Source: Escherichia phage vB_EcoP_YF01. From it: 64,000 nucleotides of DNA. The notes under the pieces were generated by a model. The model did not search any database. It was not told the DNA's origin and worked only from the letters and a program-made list of their open reading frames with translations. Shown here piece by piece: positions 3,637 to 9,965 of this stretch. The DNA lies in sequence record OQ025076.1. One strand, given 5' to 3'. Position 1 is the stretch's first letter. Every line of letters begins with the position of its first letter. The translations under genes were made by a program, and so were the position numbers.

Positions 3637-5880
3637 ATGGCTAAGCAAAAATATAGTGAAGAGGTGTTGGACGAGTTACGTGTTGACCTTCAACGTCGTT
3701 TTAATTACGCTCAAGGCTACGTAGACACAGCTGTTAAGGGCTATGCTCGTGAAGCTTGGGAATATTTCTATGGTAACTTACCTGCACCAGTAACTGCTGG
3801 CAGCTCTAGTTGGGTAGACCGTACTGTTTGGGAATCTGTTAACGGTACATTGCAAGATATTATTAACGTATTCTGTTCTGGTGATGAAGCAGTTACTTTC
3901 GTAGCTGACAACCAACAGGATTCTGATGCTGCTGACGTAGCAACTAAATTAGTTAACCAAATTCTTCTGCGTGACAATCCGGGATACAATATCATCTCTT
4001 CTGCTGCACAAGAATGTCTGGTTACTCGTAACTCTTTTATCAAATATTATTGGGATGAACAAACTTCTACTCAAACTGAAGAAGCTGAAGGTGTACCACC
4101 GGAAGCATTGGCTGCATATGTTCAGGGATTAGAAGCTGGTGGACTCAAGAATCTGGAAGTCTTCACTGAAGAAAATGAAGATGGTACAGTTGATGTTAAA
4201 GTTACTTACGAACAAACTGTTAAACGTGTGAAAGTTGAATATGTTCCTTCAGAGCAAATCTTTGTTGATGAACATGCTACCTCTTTTGCAGATGCACAAT
4301 ACTTCTGTCATCGTGTACGTCGTTCTAAAGAAGATCTGGTTGCTATGGGCTTCCCTAAAGATGAGATTGAAGCATTCAACGACTGGACAGACACGATGGA
4401 TACCACTCAATCTACAGTTGCTTGGTCTCGTACCGACTGGCGTCAGGATATTGATGCTGATATTGGTACAGATACCGAAGACATTGCTTCTATGGTTTGG
4501 GTTTATGAGCACTACATCCGTACTGGTGTTCTAGATAAGAATAAAGAGTCTAAACTCTATCAGGTTATTCAAGCTGGTGAGCATATCCTTCACACTGAAG
4601 AAGTAACTCACATTCCGTTTGTAACCTTCTGCCCGTATCCGATTCCGGGTTCCTTCTATGGTCAATCGGTCTATGACATTACGAAAGATATTCAAGATTT
4701 ACGTACCGCGCTAGTTCGTGGTTATATTGATAACGTCAACAATGCTAACTATGGTCGATACAAAGCTCTTGTTGGTGCATACGATCGTCGCTCTCTGCTT
4801 GATAACCGTCCCGGTGGAGTGGTTGAAATGGAACGTCAGGACGCTATTGATCTGTTCCCATACCATAACCTACCTCAAGGTATTGACGGCCTCCTAGGTA
4901 TGTCTGAGGAGCTTAAAGAGACACGTACAGGTGTAACCAAACTTGGTATGGGTATCAACCCTGATGTGTTTAAGAATGATAACGCTTATGCAACTGTAGG
5001 CTTGATGATGAATGCTGCACAGAACCGCCTCCGTATGGTATGTCGTAACATTGCTCACAATGGTATGGTTGAATTGATGCGTGGTATTTACAACCTTATC
5101 AGAGAAAATGGTGAAGTTCCTATCGAGGTACAAACCCCTCGTGGTATGATTCAGGTAAATCCAAAACAATTACCAGCTCGTCACAACCTCCAAGTTGTTG
5201 TAGCTATCTCTCCTAATGAGAAAGCAGAACGTGCACAGAAGCTGATTAGCTTGAAACAGCTGATTGCAGCAGATGCACAGTTAGCACCTCTCTTTGGTTT
5301 GGAGCAAGACCGTTACATGACTGCACAGATCTTTGAGTTGATGGGTATTAAAGATACACATAAATACCTTCTGCCTCTGGAACAGTATCAGCCTCCAGAA
5401 CCTTCTCCGATGGAAATCCTCCAGCTCGAGATGACTAAAGCACAGGTTGAGAACGTACAGGCTTCTTCTCAGAAGATGATTGCTGATGCATTCGACCAGC
5501 GTGAACGTACTACATTCGAACAGCAGAAAGCTGCGGATGAATTAAGTCTGCGTCAGGAAGAGTTGCAGTTCAAGCAAGAAAATGCAGCAGATGCTATGAC
5601 TCTGGAAAACCGTAAAGAAGATAACAATGCAACTCTGGAACAAGCTAAGCACAAGTTAGCTCTTATGCAACAGCAGGTTCGTCAGTATGAGTCTGTACTG
5701 AAAGAATTGCAGATGGTTATGGAGCATCAGGTTGACCAAGAGAAGATTGTTCAGCAAACTCGTGTTCAGGATAAAACTTTGGAACTCCAGAAGAAAGAAG
5801 CAAATGTAACTAAGAAAGAGCAACAAGCTTCTCTCAAAGATTCACGGATTCCAGGCAAACGTCTTGGAAGTAAAAAGTAA
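3637..5880 (+). CDS. Portal protein with Q/E-rich coiled-coil C-terminal extension
   Basis: 747 aa ORF directly after the large terminase; RBS GAGGGAGAG; assignment by position and size. Confidence 0.65.
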   Translation: MAKQKYSEEVLDELRVDLQRRFNYAQGYVDTAVKGYAREAWEYFYGNLPAPVTAGSSSWVDRTVWESVNGTLQDIINVFCSGDEAVTFVADNQQDSDAADVATKLVNQILLRDNPGYNIISSAAQECLVTRNSFIKYYWDEQTSTQTEEAEGVPPEALAAYVQGLEAGGLKNLEVFTEENEDGTVDVKVTYEQTVKRVKVEYVPSEQIFVDEHATSFADAQYFCHRVRRSKEDLVAMGFPKDEIEAFNDWTDTMDTTQSTVAWSRTDWRQDIDADIGTDTEDIASMVWVYEHYIRTGVLDKNKESKLYQVIQAGEHILHTEEVTHIPFVTFCPYPIPGSFYGQSVYDITKDIQDLRTALVRGYIDNVNNANYGRYKALVGAYDRRSLLDNRPGGVVEMERQDAIDLFPYHNLPQGIDGLLGMSEELKETRTGVTKLGMGINPDVFKNDNAYATVGLMMNAAQNRLRMVCRNIAHNGMVELMRGIYNLIRENGEVPIEVQTPRGMIQVNPKQLPARHNLQVVVAISPNEKAERAQKLISLKQLIAADAQLAPLFGLEQDRYMTAQIFELMGIKDTHKYLLPLEQYQPPEPSPMEILQLEMTKAQVENVQASSQKMIADAFDQRERTTFEQQKAADELSLRQEELQFKQENAADAMTLENRKEDNNATLEQAKHKLALMQQQVRQYESVLKELQMVMEHQVDQEKIVQQTRVQDKTLELQKKEANVTKKEQQASLKDSRIPGKRLGSKK

Positions 5881-7211: not shown

Positions 7212-7252
7212 TCGACAAATTAATTATTTAATAGTATAGGAGCTAACATAAC

Positions 7253-8314
7253 ATGGCTAATCCAACTTTATTTGTATCGTATGACCAGAATGGTAAAAAA
7301 CTTTCTTTTGCTAACTGGATTTCTGTTCTGTCCCCTCAGGATACTCCGTTCGTATCTATGACCGGTAAAGAGTCTATCAACCAGACTATCTTTAGCTGGC
7401 AGACCGATGCATTGGCAAGCGTTGACGCTAATAACGCACACGTTGAAGGTTCTCGTGCGGTTGATGGTGAAATGCAACCTACCGTAATCAAATCCAACGT
7501 TACTCAGATTCTGCGTAAGGTTGTTAAAGTTTCTGATACCGCTAACACCACCGCTAACTACGGTCGTGGTCGTGAACTGATGTATCAGCTGGAGAAGAAA
7601 GGTAAAGAGATCAAGCGTGACCTCGAGAAAATCCTTCTGTCCGGTCAGGCTCGTACCGACGTTCTGGCTGACCAATACCTGACTAACTCTGCAACTGATC
7701 CTGCAACTGTTGGTCTGAATGACGGTCATGCAGCTCGTAAGACTGGTGCATTCCAGTTCCTGTGTGCTCACGGCGGTCTGGATGGTGCTGTTGTTGACAA
7801 GACCAAGAACGGTCCTGCTGACCCGGATACTGGTGCAGTAACTGTTAAAGTTGCACAGAACGCTTCTAACCCGACCACTAACATTGGTTTTGACGAAGCT
7901 GATATCTTTGATATGACTCTGCAACTGTACACCGCTGGTTCTGAAGCAGATATCATCATGATTAACCCGGCTCATGCTAAGATCTTCGCTGGCCTGCAAG
8001 AAAACACTCAGGGTTCACGTAAGCGTATCTTTGAGAACACCAAGCAGTTCATCTACGAAGTTAACAGCATCACTGACCCGCTGGGCCAGAGCTACAAAAT
8101 CATCGTTAACCGTTGGATGCCTACCGATGCAGTTTACTTCTTCCGTAGCGCTGACTGGACCCAGATGGTTCTGCGTGCTCCGAAACGTACTGAACTGGCA
8201 AAAGATGGTTCTTACGAGAAGTGGATGATTGAAATGGAAGTTGGTCTGCGTCACCGCAACCCGTATGCTTCCGGCGTTCTGTTCACTGCTGCGGGAAAGG
8301 TAGCGGCGGCGTAA
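7253..8314 (+). CDS. Major capsid protein
   Basis: 353 aa, in the canonical position after the scaffold; strong RBS; ends 13 nt after a slippery heptamer. Confidence 0.65.
   Translation: MANPTLFVSYDQNGKKLSFANWISVLSPQDTPFVSMTGKESINQTIFSWQTDALASVDANNAHVEGSRAVDGEMQPTVIKSNVTQILRKVVKVSDTANTTANYGRGRELMYQLEKKGKEIKRDLEKILLSGQARTDVLADQYLTNSATDPATVGLNDGHAARKTGAFQFLCAHGGLDGAVVDKTKNGPADPDTGAVTVKVAQNASNPTTNIGFDEADIFDMTLQLYTAGSEADIIMINPAHAKIFAGLQENTQGSRKRIFENTKQFIYEVNSITDPLGQSYKIIVNRWMPTDAVYFFRSADWTQMVLRAPKRTELAKDGSYEKWMIEMEVGLRHRNPYASGVLFTAAGKVAAA
8293..8299 (+). other. Candidate -1 programmed ribosomal frameshift site G_GGA_AAG at the 3' end of the capsid gene
   Basis: Heptamer lies in the capsid zero frame (codons GGA AAG); the -1 frame is open from 8233 through 9930 and encodes Ig-like domains; a 6-bp hairpin (AACAGT...ACTGTT) lies at 8312-8334. 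Confidence 0.45.
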
Positions 8315-8346
8315 CAGTAGATACCGTAACTGTTAGTCCTTCGTCA

Positions 8347-9930
8347 GTGGCAAGTCTTCTGACGGGGGCTACTCAGCAGTTTACAGCTACAGCAGAAATG
8401 AGTGATGGCTCCACTAGCACAACTGGATTTAGTTGGTCCGTTGAAGGTGGTGGGGCCGTTTCTGTTTCTGGGCTATATACTGCACCGAGTACGTCGCAAG
8501 AAACCCCAGCAACAATTACGGCAACCAAAGGCGGTAAGAAAGGTACTGCTACTATCGTTAAGGTTATTGACCCAGCAATGATTGCATCAAAAGGTCCAAT
8601 CACAGGAAAGATTGGTGGTAACACTACGGAATTTACTACAATGTTTACAGCAACCCACTCAACCTACAGTGATTATAATTTTGCAGTGACTCCTACTTCA
8701 GCTGGTACAGTTAATGGGTCAGGTGTATTTGTATTAGACAATAATGCATCAGGCACAGTAACAGTAAAAGCTACCCATAAAACACAGACTTCTGTCACGG
8801 CTACGACCTCTTTCACAGGAGTTGTTGCTAAGGCTAGTATCCAGTCTAAAGGTCCAGTAACTACTGCTCTAGTTGGTGGAGATGCAGTGGCATTTACTAC
8901 AATGTTTACTCCGACTAATTCAACAGCCAGTGATTATACTGTTACTATTGACCCGACAGCTAATGGGACTTACAGCAGTGGTTCTGTGACACTCTCTGCT
9001 AGTGCATCAGGAAGTACTGTAGTGACAGCTACTCATAAAACTCAACCGGGTGTGGTAGAAACTTGTACCCTTTCTAATATCACTCCTAAGGCAACACTGA
9101 CTGGTAAAACAGTTACTGGTAAAATGGGAGAAGATACGGTAACGTTTGCTGAGATGTTCACTAGTAACAAACCAGCTTCTGAGTTTAGTTATGTTGTAAC
9201 TCCTAGCACTAACGCATCTGTGAACGTTAACACTGGACTTCTCACTCTGACTAACAACGCTAGCGGTAACTATGCAGTTAAAGCAACCCATAAGGTTCAA
9301 ACTTCTGTCACAGCAACAGCTAACGTCAATGGTGTAGTCCCTAAGCCTGATATCAGGGCTAGTGAACTACCACCTCAGGTGGGCGGTTCTCAGTTGAATT
9401 TCGGTGTTATGTTCCTCTTTGGTAACTCTTCTCCTAGCGATTACACTGTCACAATTACTCCAGCAGAAGCAGGTACTGTTGACCCAACTGATGGTGATGT
9501 GACACTTGCTCTTGATCCGGGCGACGAGTTGATTTCAGTTAAAGCTGTTCATAAAACTATCCCTTCTGTTCAAGCAACCTGTAGTTTCACCGCTACTCCT
9601 AAGCTGTTAGGATTGGTAGCATCACAGGTAACTAATACAGTGGTTGTAGGTGATCCAGAAAACCCACTTGCTACTGATACCATCACAATTACTGACTCCG
9701 CTCAACCGGGTGTAGTTCGTTTTGACAGCGTACCTCAGGGTGCTATTGTTGGCAAACTGGTGTATGACGTAGAAGGTACTGATGCAAGTTTGATGGAATT
9801 GTCTCTTTCTGGTCAGGTATTGACAATCACCTTGTCAGCTCCTATTACCAGTGAAGATACTAAAGTCACAGTTAGAACTGACCCAGGTTCTAATGTGTTC
9901 CGTACTTATATTGTTAAATCTGGTGCATAA
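8347..9930 (+). CDS. Multi-repeat Ig-like (Big_2-type) protein, probably a capsid-fused decoration
   Basis: About six repeats ending in ...ATHKTQTSVTAT-like strands; ORF-track start is GTG with no RBS; the first Ig-like strand (VDTVTVSPSSVASLL) is encoded upstream of that GTG in the same frame. Confidence 0.7.
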   Translation: MASLLTGATQQFTATAEMSDGSTSTTGFSWSVEGGGAVSVSGLYTAPSTSQETPATITATKGGKKGTATIVKVIDPAMIASKGPITGKIGGNTTEFTTMFTATHSTYSDYNFAVTPTSAGTVNGSGVFVLDNNASGTVTVKATHKTQTSVTATTSFTGVVAKASIQSKGPVTTALVGGDAVAFTTMFTPTNSTASDYTVTIDPTANGTYSSGSVTLSASASGSTVVTATHKTQPGVVETCTLSNITPKATLTGKTVTGKMGEDTVTFAEMFTSNKPASEFSYVVTPSTNASVNVNTGLLTLTNNASGNYAVKATHKVQTSVTATANVNGVVPKPDIRASELPPQVGGSQLNFGVMFLFGNSSPSDYTVTITPAEAGTVDPTDGDVTLALDPGDELISVKAVHKTIPSVQATCSFTATPKLLGLVASQVTNTVVVGDPENPLATDTITITDSAQPGVVRFDSVPQGAIVGKLVYDVEGTDASLMELSLSGQVLTITLSAPITSEDTKVTVRTDPGSNVFRTYIVKSGA

Positions 9931-9936
9931 GAATAA

Positions 9937-9965
9937 AGCCGCCTTCGGGTGGCTTTTCTTGTTTT
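9937..9965 (+). terminator. Rho-independent terminator (AGCCGCC-TTCG-GGTGGCT then T-tract)
   Basis: 7-bp stem with one G-U pair, UUCG loop, then TTTCTTGTTTT. Confidence 0.55.

Follow-up and report, generated by a model that had tools for sequence, protein, structure and literature searches.

The YF01 capsid gene and its open −1 frame

We analysed a window of 64,000 nucleotides from Escherichia phage vB_EcoP_YF01 (hereafter YF01; record OQ025076.1), in which the major capsid gene is followed by a long open reading frame (ORF) encoding immunoglobulin (Ig)-like domains. This gene order (portal, scaffold, capsid, Ig-like ORF, adaptor) is shared with phages Paul and phiEco32, and the neighbours in the window match PF23899 (portal) and PF24175 (adaptor). 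The capsid protein belongs to the Pfam family SU10_MCP (PF17236, E 5e-77) and to PHROG 1328, major head protein. Feature coordinates are collected in Table 1.

A sequence-only reading of this stretch had proposed that a fraction of capsid subunits is extended by −1 frameshifting into the Ig-like ORF, and the elements it named are in place. The capsid ORF ends at 8314 after 353 aa (C-terminus ...FTAAGKVAAA*), and the −1 frame has no stop from 8233 up to the TAA ending at 9930, running 538 codons past the capsid stop. The heptamer G_GGA_AAG at 8293–8299, 13–19 nt before that stop, has the claimed phase: the capsid-frame codons are GCG GGA AAG, with GGA and AAG inside the heptamer. GGGAAAG occurs 9 times in the 64-kb window against 7.3 expected, a chance level that makes its frequency alone uninformative; what makes it significant is its phase, its distance to the stop and the fact that relatives keep it unchanged.

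Joining 7253..8299 to 8299..9930 in silico gives a product of 892 aa and 93.3 kDa, in line with the roughly 95 kDa suggested for the long form, that reads ...FTAAGK-GSGGVTVDTVTVSPSSVASLL... across the junction. The record of phage Paul annotates one ribosome-binding site for both capsid coding sequences, at the place equivalent to 7238..7242, and a terminator at the place equivalent to 9935..9956. In YF01 the latter is the only strong terminator, with none separating the Ig-like ORF from the capsid stop, so the capsid gene and its extension form one transcription unit.

Table 1. Features of the YF01 capsid locus (positions in the window).
Feature	Position	Strand	Basis or remark
Shine-Dalgarno AGGAG, common to both capsid isoforms	7238..7242	+	precedes ATG 7253, pairing energy −6.5 kcal/mol
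Major capsid protein, short (0-frame) form, 353 aa, 38.7 kDa	7253..8314	+	ORF; Pfam; PHROG
Slippery heptamer G_GGA_AAG, X_XXY_YYZ in capsid frame	8293..8299	+	sequence, conservation, PMC9965538
−1 frame extension, 543 aa plus stop	8299..9930	+	translation, in-silico fusion
GSGG linker, capsid C-terminus to first Ig-like domain	8299..8310	+	translation
Big_2 (bacterial Ig-like group 2) domain, begins before GTG 8347	8311..8565	+	Pfam, model
0-frame stop TAA, end of short form	8312..8314	+	sequence, ORF list
Conserved RNA hairpin, 21 pairs in consensus, 59 nt	8326..8384	+	folding, covariation
GTG given as ORF start by ORF finder	8347..8349	+	no Shine-Dalgarno, not conserved, inside hairpin stem
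Four tandem Ig-like beta-sandwich repeats, ~86 aa each	8566..9600	+	PHROG, repeat HMM, model
Repeat R1	8566–8826	+	
Repeat R2	8827–9087	+	
Repeat R3	9088–9342	+	
Repeat R4	9343–9600	+	
C-terminal all-beta domain, ~109 aa	9601..9927	+	modelled strands
Intrinsic terminator directly after extension	9935..9956	+	9-pair stem then T-run

The extension is modelled as an all-beta chain (pLDDT 90.5) of six beta-sandwich domains, namely Big_2, four repeats and a C-terminal domain, in agreement with the "about six Ig-like domains" foreseen earlier. The GSGG linker expected between the capsid C-terminus and the first Ig strand is present in the translation; it is modelled as non-regular structure of lower confidence (pLDDT <50 for the first 3 residues), and its length varies by one codon among relatives. 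Big_2 is matched by Pfam PF02368 (36.5 bits, cut-off 22.8), with strands modelled over extension residues 7–90. Self-BLAST of the extension gave no repeat matches; the repeats emerged with PHROGs (PHROG 13745, "Ig domain containing protein", E 9e-102, four stretches) and with a custom repeat HMM, which found 4 units in YF01 and 1–4 in relatives, and this region is modelled at pLDDT 90–97. The C-terminal domain, without a match in the Pfam search, has strands at extension residues 438–541 (pLDDT about 80–94). A sequence search of the extension against solved structures returned nothing significant, while the best structural matches of its model were tandem Ig, cadherin, titin and S-layer chains, with E down to 1e-17.

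Frameshifting weighed against other origins of the extension

The account that we favour, with a probability of roughly 0.9 as a whole, is that −1 frameshifting on G_GGA_AAG gives an 892-aa capsid form with six Ig-like domains. Most ribosomes would stop at TAA 8312–8314 and yield the 353-aa capsid protein, while a minority would slip back one base on the heptamer, tRNA-Gly re-pairing from GGA to GGG and tRNA-Lys from AAG to AAA, and read on in the −1 frame as far as 9930. The C-terminus of the long form would then comprise the GSGG linker, Big_2, the four ~86-aa Ig-like repeats and the final beta-sandwich domain. By analogy with lambda G-T, which has the same heptamer, the slip would be expected to occur at a frequency of a few per cent. 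The long form should co-assemble because the whole capsid fold is contained in its N-terminal 349 residues, and we infer that it is incorporated into YF01 virions, where it would lie in the prolate head and carry a flexible Ig-like string on the head surface. At a slip rate of 3.5–10%, some 25–70 of roughly 715 capsid copies per head would be expected to be of the long form.

Conservation of the slip site extends across the group. All 24 Kuravirus-group loci (21 distinct sequences), whose −1 extensions span 172–540 aa, carry G_GGA_AAG unchanged and in the capsid phase, and it is also in phase in 2 Privateervirus loci at 57% capsid identity; scans of metagenomes and IMG/VR yielded few further haplotypes. 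Upstream of the heptamer, variable columns concentrate at 0-frame third positions (6/9, others 1/10 and 0/10). From the capsid stop to the GTG (8314–8346) they concentrate at −1-frame third positions (7/11, others 3/11 and 1/11), for which the figure after the GTG is 22/26. Judged from these columns, the signature of coding selection follows the capsid frame up to the heptamer and the −1 frame beyond it.

If the Ig-like ORF were a separate gene, starting at GTG 8347 or nearby, its product would be a free decoration protein held non-covalently on the capsid, with no frameshift. Most GenBank records of relatives present it as such (phiEco32 gp12, SR02, SGF2, EP335, LAMP, E20-1, IME267), and the SU10 structure paper allows that gp10 may be a minor capsid protein of its own. 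However, the annotated starts in relatives differ and are non-homologous, and the GTG itself is not conserved, its codon being GTT, TTA or GTA in most relatives. Shine-Dalgarno pairing is 0 kcal/mol at 8347, as the sequence-only reading had supposed in describing this GTG as lacking a ribosome-binding site, and also at 8398; it is weak at ATG 8578 (−3.9 kcal/mol), compared with −5.9 to −11.4 kcal/mol for six neighbouring genes. Moreover, the GTG is buried in a −23.7 kcal/mol hairpin, and the 33 nt upstream of it show the −1-frame coding pattern.

The domain boundary speaks against the separate gene as well, since a start at the GTG would remove strand A of Big_2. In the translation from 8233, the Pfam match begins at residue 29, equivalent to nt 8317 and 30 nt upstream of GTG 8347, and the first modelled strand spans extension residues 7–14 (nt 8317–8340); both bear out the proposal that the first Ig strand is encoded upstream of the GTG. 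We therefore consider a separate gene improbable, and GTG 8347 is probably an internal Val codon rather than a start. Peptides from GSGGVTVDTVTVSPSS in virions would contradict independent initiation. For the junction peptide put forward earlier, ...FTAAGK-GSGGVTVDTV..., a protease other than trypsin should be used, since trypsin would cut at the junction lysine and yield a 77-residue GSGG... peptide.

The same fused protein would be expected if the frames were joined in the RNA, through slippage of RNA polymerase rather than the ribosome at GGGAAAG. Nothing specific points to this, and the homopolymer runs here, GGG and AAA, have only 3 nt each, short of the stretch of at least about 7 A or T that RNA polymerase requires for productive slippage. 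What is conserved is a phased X_XXY_YYZ, a feature specific to tandem tRNA re-pairing, and we give polymerase slippage very little credence. A third possibility, that heptamer and open −1 frame coincide by chance and the downstream ORF is an untranslated relic, would fit the chance frequency of GGGAAAG in the window and the deposited SU10 sequence, where a 1-nt indel, in the region equivalent to 8320–8335, truncates the −1 ORF. It is nevertheless highly unlikely in view of a 543-codon open frame with third-position-biased variation, a confident six-domain fold, an arrangement kept across genera and a long form reported as detected in relatives.

Among the sequence comparisons, every test that we ran points to −1 frameshifting at G_GGA_AAG and away from independent initiation. 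The proposal of a frameshift-extended fraction of capsid subunits thereby gains support from the conservation of the heptamer, the switch of frame, the non-conserved GTG without a Shine-Dalgarno and the position at which the Ig domain starts.

A conserved hairpin downstream of the slip site

Stimulatory RNA structures 5–9 nt 3' of a slip site are common but not obligatory in bacteria, and we know of no defined stimulator for lambda G-T, which has the same heptamer. We found no such structure at this classical distance in YF01; the only conserved, covarying one is a hairpin (8326–8384) whose 5' end lies 26 nt beyond the heptamer and 11 nt beyond the capsid stop. With a dG of −23.7 kcal/mol (z −4.0), this hairpin ranks second in stability among 3255 59-nt windows of the late region, and 98.9% of cells are paired across 21 sequences. 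Pair 8346:8360 is seen as U-A, G-C and A-U. The covariation score was reached by 0 of 500 shuffles and rests on roughly three independent double substitutions, among about six distinct hairpin variants. No description of the hairpin was found in the accessible literature.

Other local folds were set aside. As a classical stimulator, the fold at 8300–8400 (z −2.2) depends on an outer stem, GUAGC/GCUAC, that is absent in relatives without a 3-nt insert, and 8270–8360 folds no more stably than shuffled sequences (z +0.65). At −30.2 kcal/mol, the fold at 8404–8462 is locally the most stable but is not conserved, its consensus reaching only −10.7 kcal/mol. The stem proposed for SU10, whose loop holds the heptamer, can pair in 92% of cells with no compensatory change, and is uninformative.

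That the 8326–8384 hairpin is an undescribed cis-element governing how much short relative to long capsid protein is made is a tentative idea, which we rate well below even odds. It could act on frameshifting from farther away than is usual. A likelier role would be to protect the capsid-coding stretch of the mRNA from decay or from Rho termination in the 1.6-kb extension, where translation would be sparse, or to prevent re-initiation downstream.

The phiEco32 group and other extended structural proteins

The YF01 capsid frameshift is already known. A 2023 paper on the same genome reached the same conclusion, giving the capsid gene at nt 7253–8314, GGGAAAG at 8293–8299 and an 892-aa isoform at 7253–9930 (PMC9965538). 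The deposited "major capsid protein [Escherichia phage vB_EcoP_YF01]" and our in-silico fusion agree at 892/892 residues. SDS-PAGE and MS are mentioned in that paper for SU10 only (PMC9965538).

YF01 belongs to the extended capsid system of the phiEco32 group (Kuravirus, Gordonclarkvirinae: phiEco32 gp11-gp12, SU10 gp9-gp10, Paul and YF01), with the same SU10_MCP capsid family and gene order and no difference in kind. The Paul record gives a joined coding sequence with the note "Frameshift at GGGAAAG". Both capsid forms were detected in phiEco32, according to the Paul GenBank note and two papers, and proteomics of SU10 reports capsid forms of 38.5 and 55.4 kDa. A cryo-EM study of SU10 saw no extra capsid density or band; because the deposited SU10 −1 ORF is truncated by the indel, this negative does not bear on YF01. 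Extensions are longest in YF01 and Paul (543–545 aa), with Big_2, four repeats and the C-terminal domain, and reach 178 aa in phiEco32-type phages, with Big_2 and one repeat. We found no description of this variation in repeat copy number (1–4) in the accessible literature.

Proteus phage Privateer has a homologous capsid (57% identity), G_GGA_AAG and a −1 extension with I-set and Big_2 domains; two capsid bands appear in SDS-PAGE, and the minor form was detected by MS. Unlike in YF01, the stop codon follows its heptamer directly (G_GGA_AAG_TAA), a hairpin begins 6 nt downstream of the heptamer, and the extension is only 168 aa. Lahexavirus-like relatives, in which GTA_AAG is followed 5 nt downstream by strong structure, appear to make the same Ig-like extension by slipping on this probable non-canonical site, of which we found no description in the accessible literature.

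The lambda G / G-T frameshift involves different proteins and sets a tail chaperone ratio, whereas the YF01 site would serve capsid display; G-T is not part of the virion. The heptamer itself is identical to that of lambda G / G-T, as the sequence-only reading had noted (PMC9965538), and is read in lambda too by E. coli ribosomes. Its slip rate there is about 3.5%, as quoted in PMC9965538 from Xu et al. 2004, and G_GGA_AAG is highly shift-prone in E. coli (PMC5009743).

The comparison with T7 10A/10B made by that reading holds in part. T3 and T7 gene 10A/10B, like YF01, use a −1 frameshift near the end of a podophage capsid gene to make a minor, C-terminally extended, co-assembling capsid protein. 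T3 is the closer parallel, its extension being Ig-like as in YF01 (PMC5009743, PMC9965538), while T7 has a short extension that is not Ig-like, a slip site of the G_GU form in place of G_GGA_AAG, and a frameshift that depends on a distant 3' element in the terminator (PMC5009743). Nothing was found to link the YF01 capsid to those of T7 and T3 beyond the HK97 fold, its Pfam match being SU10_MCP and no T7-type family; 10A/10B is a functional analogue of the YF01 system and not a member of it. A wider class of phage structural proteins (Fraser et al. 2006; coat proteins of Lactobacillus A2 and Listeria A118/A500/PSA) bears C-terminal Big_2 or I-set domains, often through programmed frameshifting (PMC5009743). 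YF01 has a slip site and a capsid family unlike those of this class, and its six tandem domains stand at the long end of the range. Phage Ig-like domains have been suggested to act as weakly adhesive accessories (PMC9965538), and by analogy those of YF01 probably serve weak adhesion to carbohydrate-rich surfaces.

A true recoding event was thus recoverable from sequence alone, and the GenBank records listed above, in which the extension is a separate gene with an arbitrary start codon, could be corrected. The conserved downstream hairpin offers a small lead towards what determines the balance of the two isoforms. The variable number of Ig-like repeats on the capsid of an E. coli phage is relevant to gut phage adhesion and to phage-display engineering.

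A capsid frameshift already on record

The capsid frameshift of YF01 is already known. The 2023 paper on this phage describes a capsid protein of 353 aa encoded at nt 7253-8314, the motif GGGAAAG at nt 8293-8299 and, through the -1 frame, a longer isoform of 892 aa spanning nt 7253-9930 (PMC9965538), and its coordinates are identical to those of the window. Our in-silico fusion is also identical (892/892) to the deposited 892-aa 'major capsid protein [Escherichia phage vB_EcoP_YF01]'. The finding is therefore published and deposited for the YF01 genome itself.

The sequence-only reading proposed that the capsid ORF continues by -1 frameshifting into an Ig-like ORF, and each sequence element that it cited is borne out. 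The capsid ORF stops at 8314, and the -1 frame is stop-free from 8233 to a TAA ending at 9930. The capsid ORF closes with ...GCT GCG GGA AAG GTA GCG GCG GCG TAA, and its codons GCG GGA AAG therefore set the heptamer in slippery phase. Slippage there yields ...FTAAGK-GSGGVTVDTVTVSPSSVASLL..., with predicted masses of 93.3 kDa for the 892-aa fused product and 38.7 kDa for the short form. Frequency alone does not set the heptamer apart, since 7.3 copies would be expected in the window and 9 occur; what gives it weight is its phase, its position and its conservation.

The capsid belongs to the SU10 type (Pfam SU10_MCP, E 5e-77) and adjoins SU10-type portal and adaptor genes, in DNA that matches Kuravirus-group coliphages at 86-95%. 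Related phages have records that bear on the same event. For SU10, the genome paper identifies the slip site along with capsid proteins of two sizes, 38.5 and 55.4 kDa (PMC4281155); extra density was not seen in the cryo-EM study of this phage. The Privateer paper reports two bands, with the minor form found by mass spectrometry, and states that phiEco32 and SU10 both showed two capsid forms (PMC7881722). The phage Paul record notes 'Frameshift at GGGAAAG; Frameshift in PhiEco32 major capsid protein product as well (PMID 18294652)'. A joined CDS is carried only by the Paul, Privateer and YF01 records; those of phiEco32, SR02, SGF2, EP335, LAMP, E20-1 and IME267 (GenBank/RefSeq) split off the extension under the name 'Ig domain containing protein' or 'hypothetical protein', from start codons that are arbitrary and differ. 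More broadly, frameshift-derived Ig-like capsid extensions are known in T3, A2 and Listeria phages; T7, to which YF01 had been likened, differs in that its extension is not Ig-like (PMC5009743).

Features of the capsid region and of related capsid loci (window positions unless an L-number, denoting a collected locus of a related phage, is given)
Feature	Position	Details
Capsid ORF	7253-8314	353 aa, C-terminal end ...FTAAGKVAAA*
G_GGA_AAG heptamer	8293-8299	X_XXY_YYZ phase in capsid frame
GSGG linker	8299-8310	
Big_2 domain	8311-8565	
Conserved 59-nt hairpin	8326-8384	inside Big_2 coding region; GTG 8347 within
Four repeats	8566-9600	
C-terminal beta domain	9601-9927	~109 aa
Terminator	9935-9956	only strong one; directly 3' of long ORF
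Invariant pre-stop sequence	L009-L012 ~4913-4924	
Invariant pre-stop sequence	L018 ~4413-4424	Aeromonas phage LAh_9
Capsid paralogues	L019 2485-5261	Salmonella phage SE131
Capsid paralogues	L020 3492-5629	GAP52
Capsid paralogues	L021 1569-5763	APT65

Frameshifting and independent initiation compared

All 24 Kuravirus-group loci collected (21 distinct sequences) have the heptamer unchanged and in the slippery phase, starting 16-22 nt 5' of the stop codon, and the -1 frame runs 172-540 codons past the capsid stop. Privateervirus, with 57% capsid identity, retains G_GGA_AAG immediately 5' of its TAA, followed by a 168-aa extension with I-set and Big_2 domains. Codon-position variation changes frame across the site. 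Variable columns fall at capsid-frame third positions 5' of the heptamer (6/9 vs 1/10 and 0/10) and at -1-frame third positions both in the stretch from the capsid stop to GTG 8347 (7/11 vs 3/11 and 1/11) and 3' of that GTG (22/26). Coding selection thus acts in the -1 frame on the 33 nt 5' of the GTG.

An independent start would use GTG 8347, which the sequence-only reading had described as lacking a ribosome-binding site. Indeed, Shine-Dalgarno pairing is 0 kcal/mol there and at ATG 8398, compared with -5.9 to -11.4 kcal/mol for six neighbouring genes. Most relatives replace the GTG codon with GTT, TTA or GTA, and annotators of their GenBank records chose differing, non-homologous start codons. 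The first Ig strand lies 5' of the GTG as predicted, since the Big_2 match begins at nt 8317 and the first modelled strand spans 8317-8340. Conservation of the heptamer, the switch in selected frame, the missing independent start, the domain boundary and the single strong terminator together support -1 frameshifting.

The evidence best supports tandem -1 re-pairing as the mechanism: tRNA-Gly would move from GGA to GGG and tRNA-Lys from AAG to AAA. G_GGA_AAG is classed as highly shift-prone in E. coli (PMC5009743). The identity with the lambda G-T heptamer given in the sequence-only reading is correct, and E. coli ribosomes slip on that site at ~3.5% (PMC9965538). If slippage were 3.5-10%, a head with the 715 capsid subunits of SU10 (cryo-EM study) would carry roughly 25-70 long subunits.

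The Ig-like extension and a conserved hairpin

The estimate of about six Ig-like domains joined to the capsid by a GSGG linker is accurate: a Big_2 domain is followed by four tandem units of ~86 aa (PHROGs and a custom repeat HMM) and a C-terminal beta domain. A structure model of the extension, resting on 26 homologues, is confident (mean pLDDT 90.5) and all-beta; it most closely resembles chains of tandem Ig-like, cadherin, titin and S-layer domains, among them the nozzle domains of SU10, which are Ig-like. Relatives whose capsid genes are otherwise 92-99% identical (L001-L043) carry between 1 and 4 repeats: phiEco32-type phages have one repeat in a 178-aa extension, Paul and YF01 four. Some relatives have the C-terminal domain and others lack it. 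The extension behaves as a rapidly reshuffled module, and its domain class suggests that it may be adhesive.

Folding and comparison of relatives revealed no conserved RNA structure beginning at the classical 5-9 nt from the heptamer; a stem suggested for SU10, whose loop would hold the heptamer, can pair but lacks covariation. Further downstream, 26 nt 3' of the heptamer and 11 nt 3' of the capsid stop, begins a hairpin that the YF01 paper does not mention. At -23.7 kcal/mol (z -4.0) it is the second most stable of 3255 59-nt windows in the late region, and the phiEco32 and E20-1 versions reach -27.6 and -28.7 kcal/mol. Across 21 sequences the hairpin is conserved, and 98.9% of cells are paired; 0/500 shuffles reach the observed score, and slid controls pair only 29-52%. 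Three pairs covary, most clearly 8346:8360, which is U-A (10), G-C (8) or A-U (3). Position 8346 is a synonymous Ser site, but 8360 alters the residue (L, P, Q or E), which points to selection at the RNA level. The evidence, drawn from about six haplotypes and some three independent double changes, is suggestive, not conclusive. This minor lead has three candidate roles: the hairpin might modulate frameshifting from afar, shield the capsid-coding mRNA at the point where fewer ribosomes pass, or suppress re-initiation. Within the 10-kb late region, the local RNA fold of lowest energy, at 8404-8462 (-30.2 kcal/mol), is unconserved (consensus -10.7 kcal/mol) and probably incidental.

The deposited SU10 sequence (L044, KM044272, 1390-1433) carries a 1-nt indel relative to phiEco32 just 3' of the capsid stop, as the YF01 authors remarked (PMC9965538). 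Its -1 frame therefore stops after 13 codons, GKGGGVTVDTVYC*, and the Ig-like ORF is shifted into the capsid frame, 3' of TAA CAG TAG. Either SU10 has truly lost the long isoform or the indel is a sequencing error; the hairpin is kept.

Other possible routes to a longer capsid protein

Lahexavirus-like relatives (L009-L012 and L018 examined) have no X_XXY_YYZ site. Before the capsid stop they share an invariant ...CTG AAG GTA AAG... (TGAAGGTAAAG), and an overlapping -1 ORF encodes two Big_2 domains (L009) or, in LAh_9, where it is annotated as a gene of its own, an I-set domain. Minimal -1 slip sites are known to include A_AAG (PMC5009743), and in L009 a -50.5 kcal/mol structure (z -4.8) begins ~5 nt downstream. 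These features suggest a probable unannotated -1 frameshift on GTA_AAG, a non-canonical slip site that is a minor lead.

SE131, GAP52 and APT65 encode two to four tandem capsid paralogues, one in each being longer at the C-terminus, in frame; Ig-like (Big_2) content is confirmed only for SE131. A distant relative with four paralogues (L014, 55% identity) has an in-phase dnaX-type A_AAA_AAG at 4921-4927, 10 nt 5' of the last paralogue's stop, with a -1 extension of only 40 aa and no Pfam match. Besides frameshifting, a longer in-frame paralogue offers a way to produce a minor decorated capsid subunit. Such paralogues and the non-canonical slip site agree with a view in the literature: chance decides whether an Ig-like domain arrives in or out of frame, and any workable route then serves to express it (PMC5009743).
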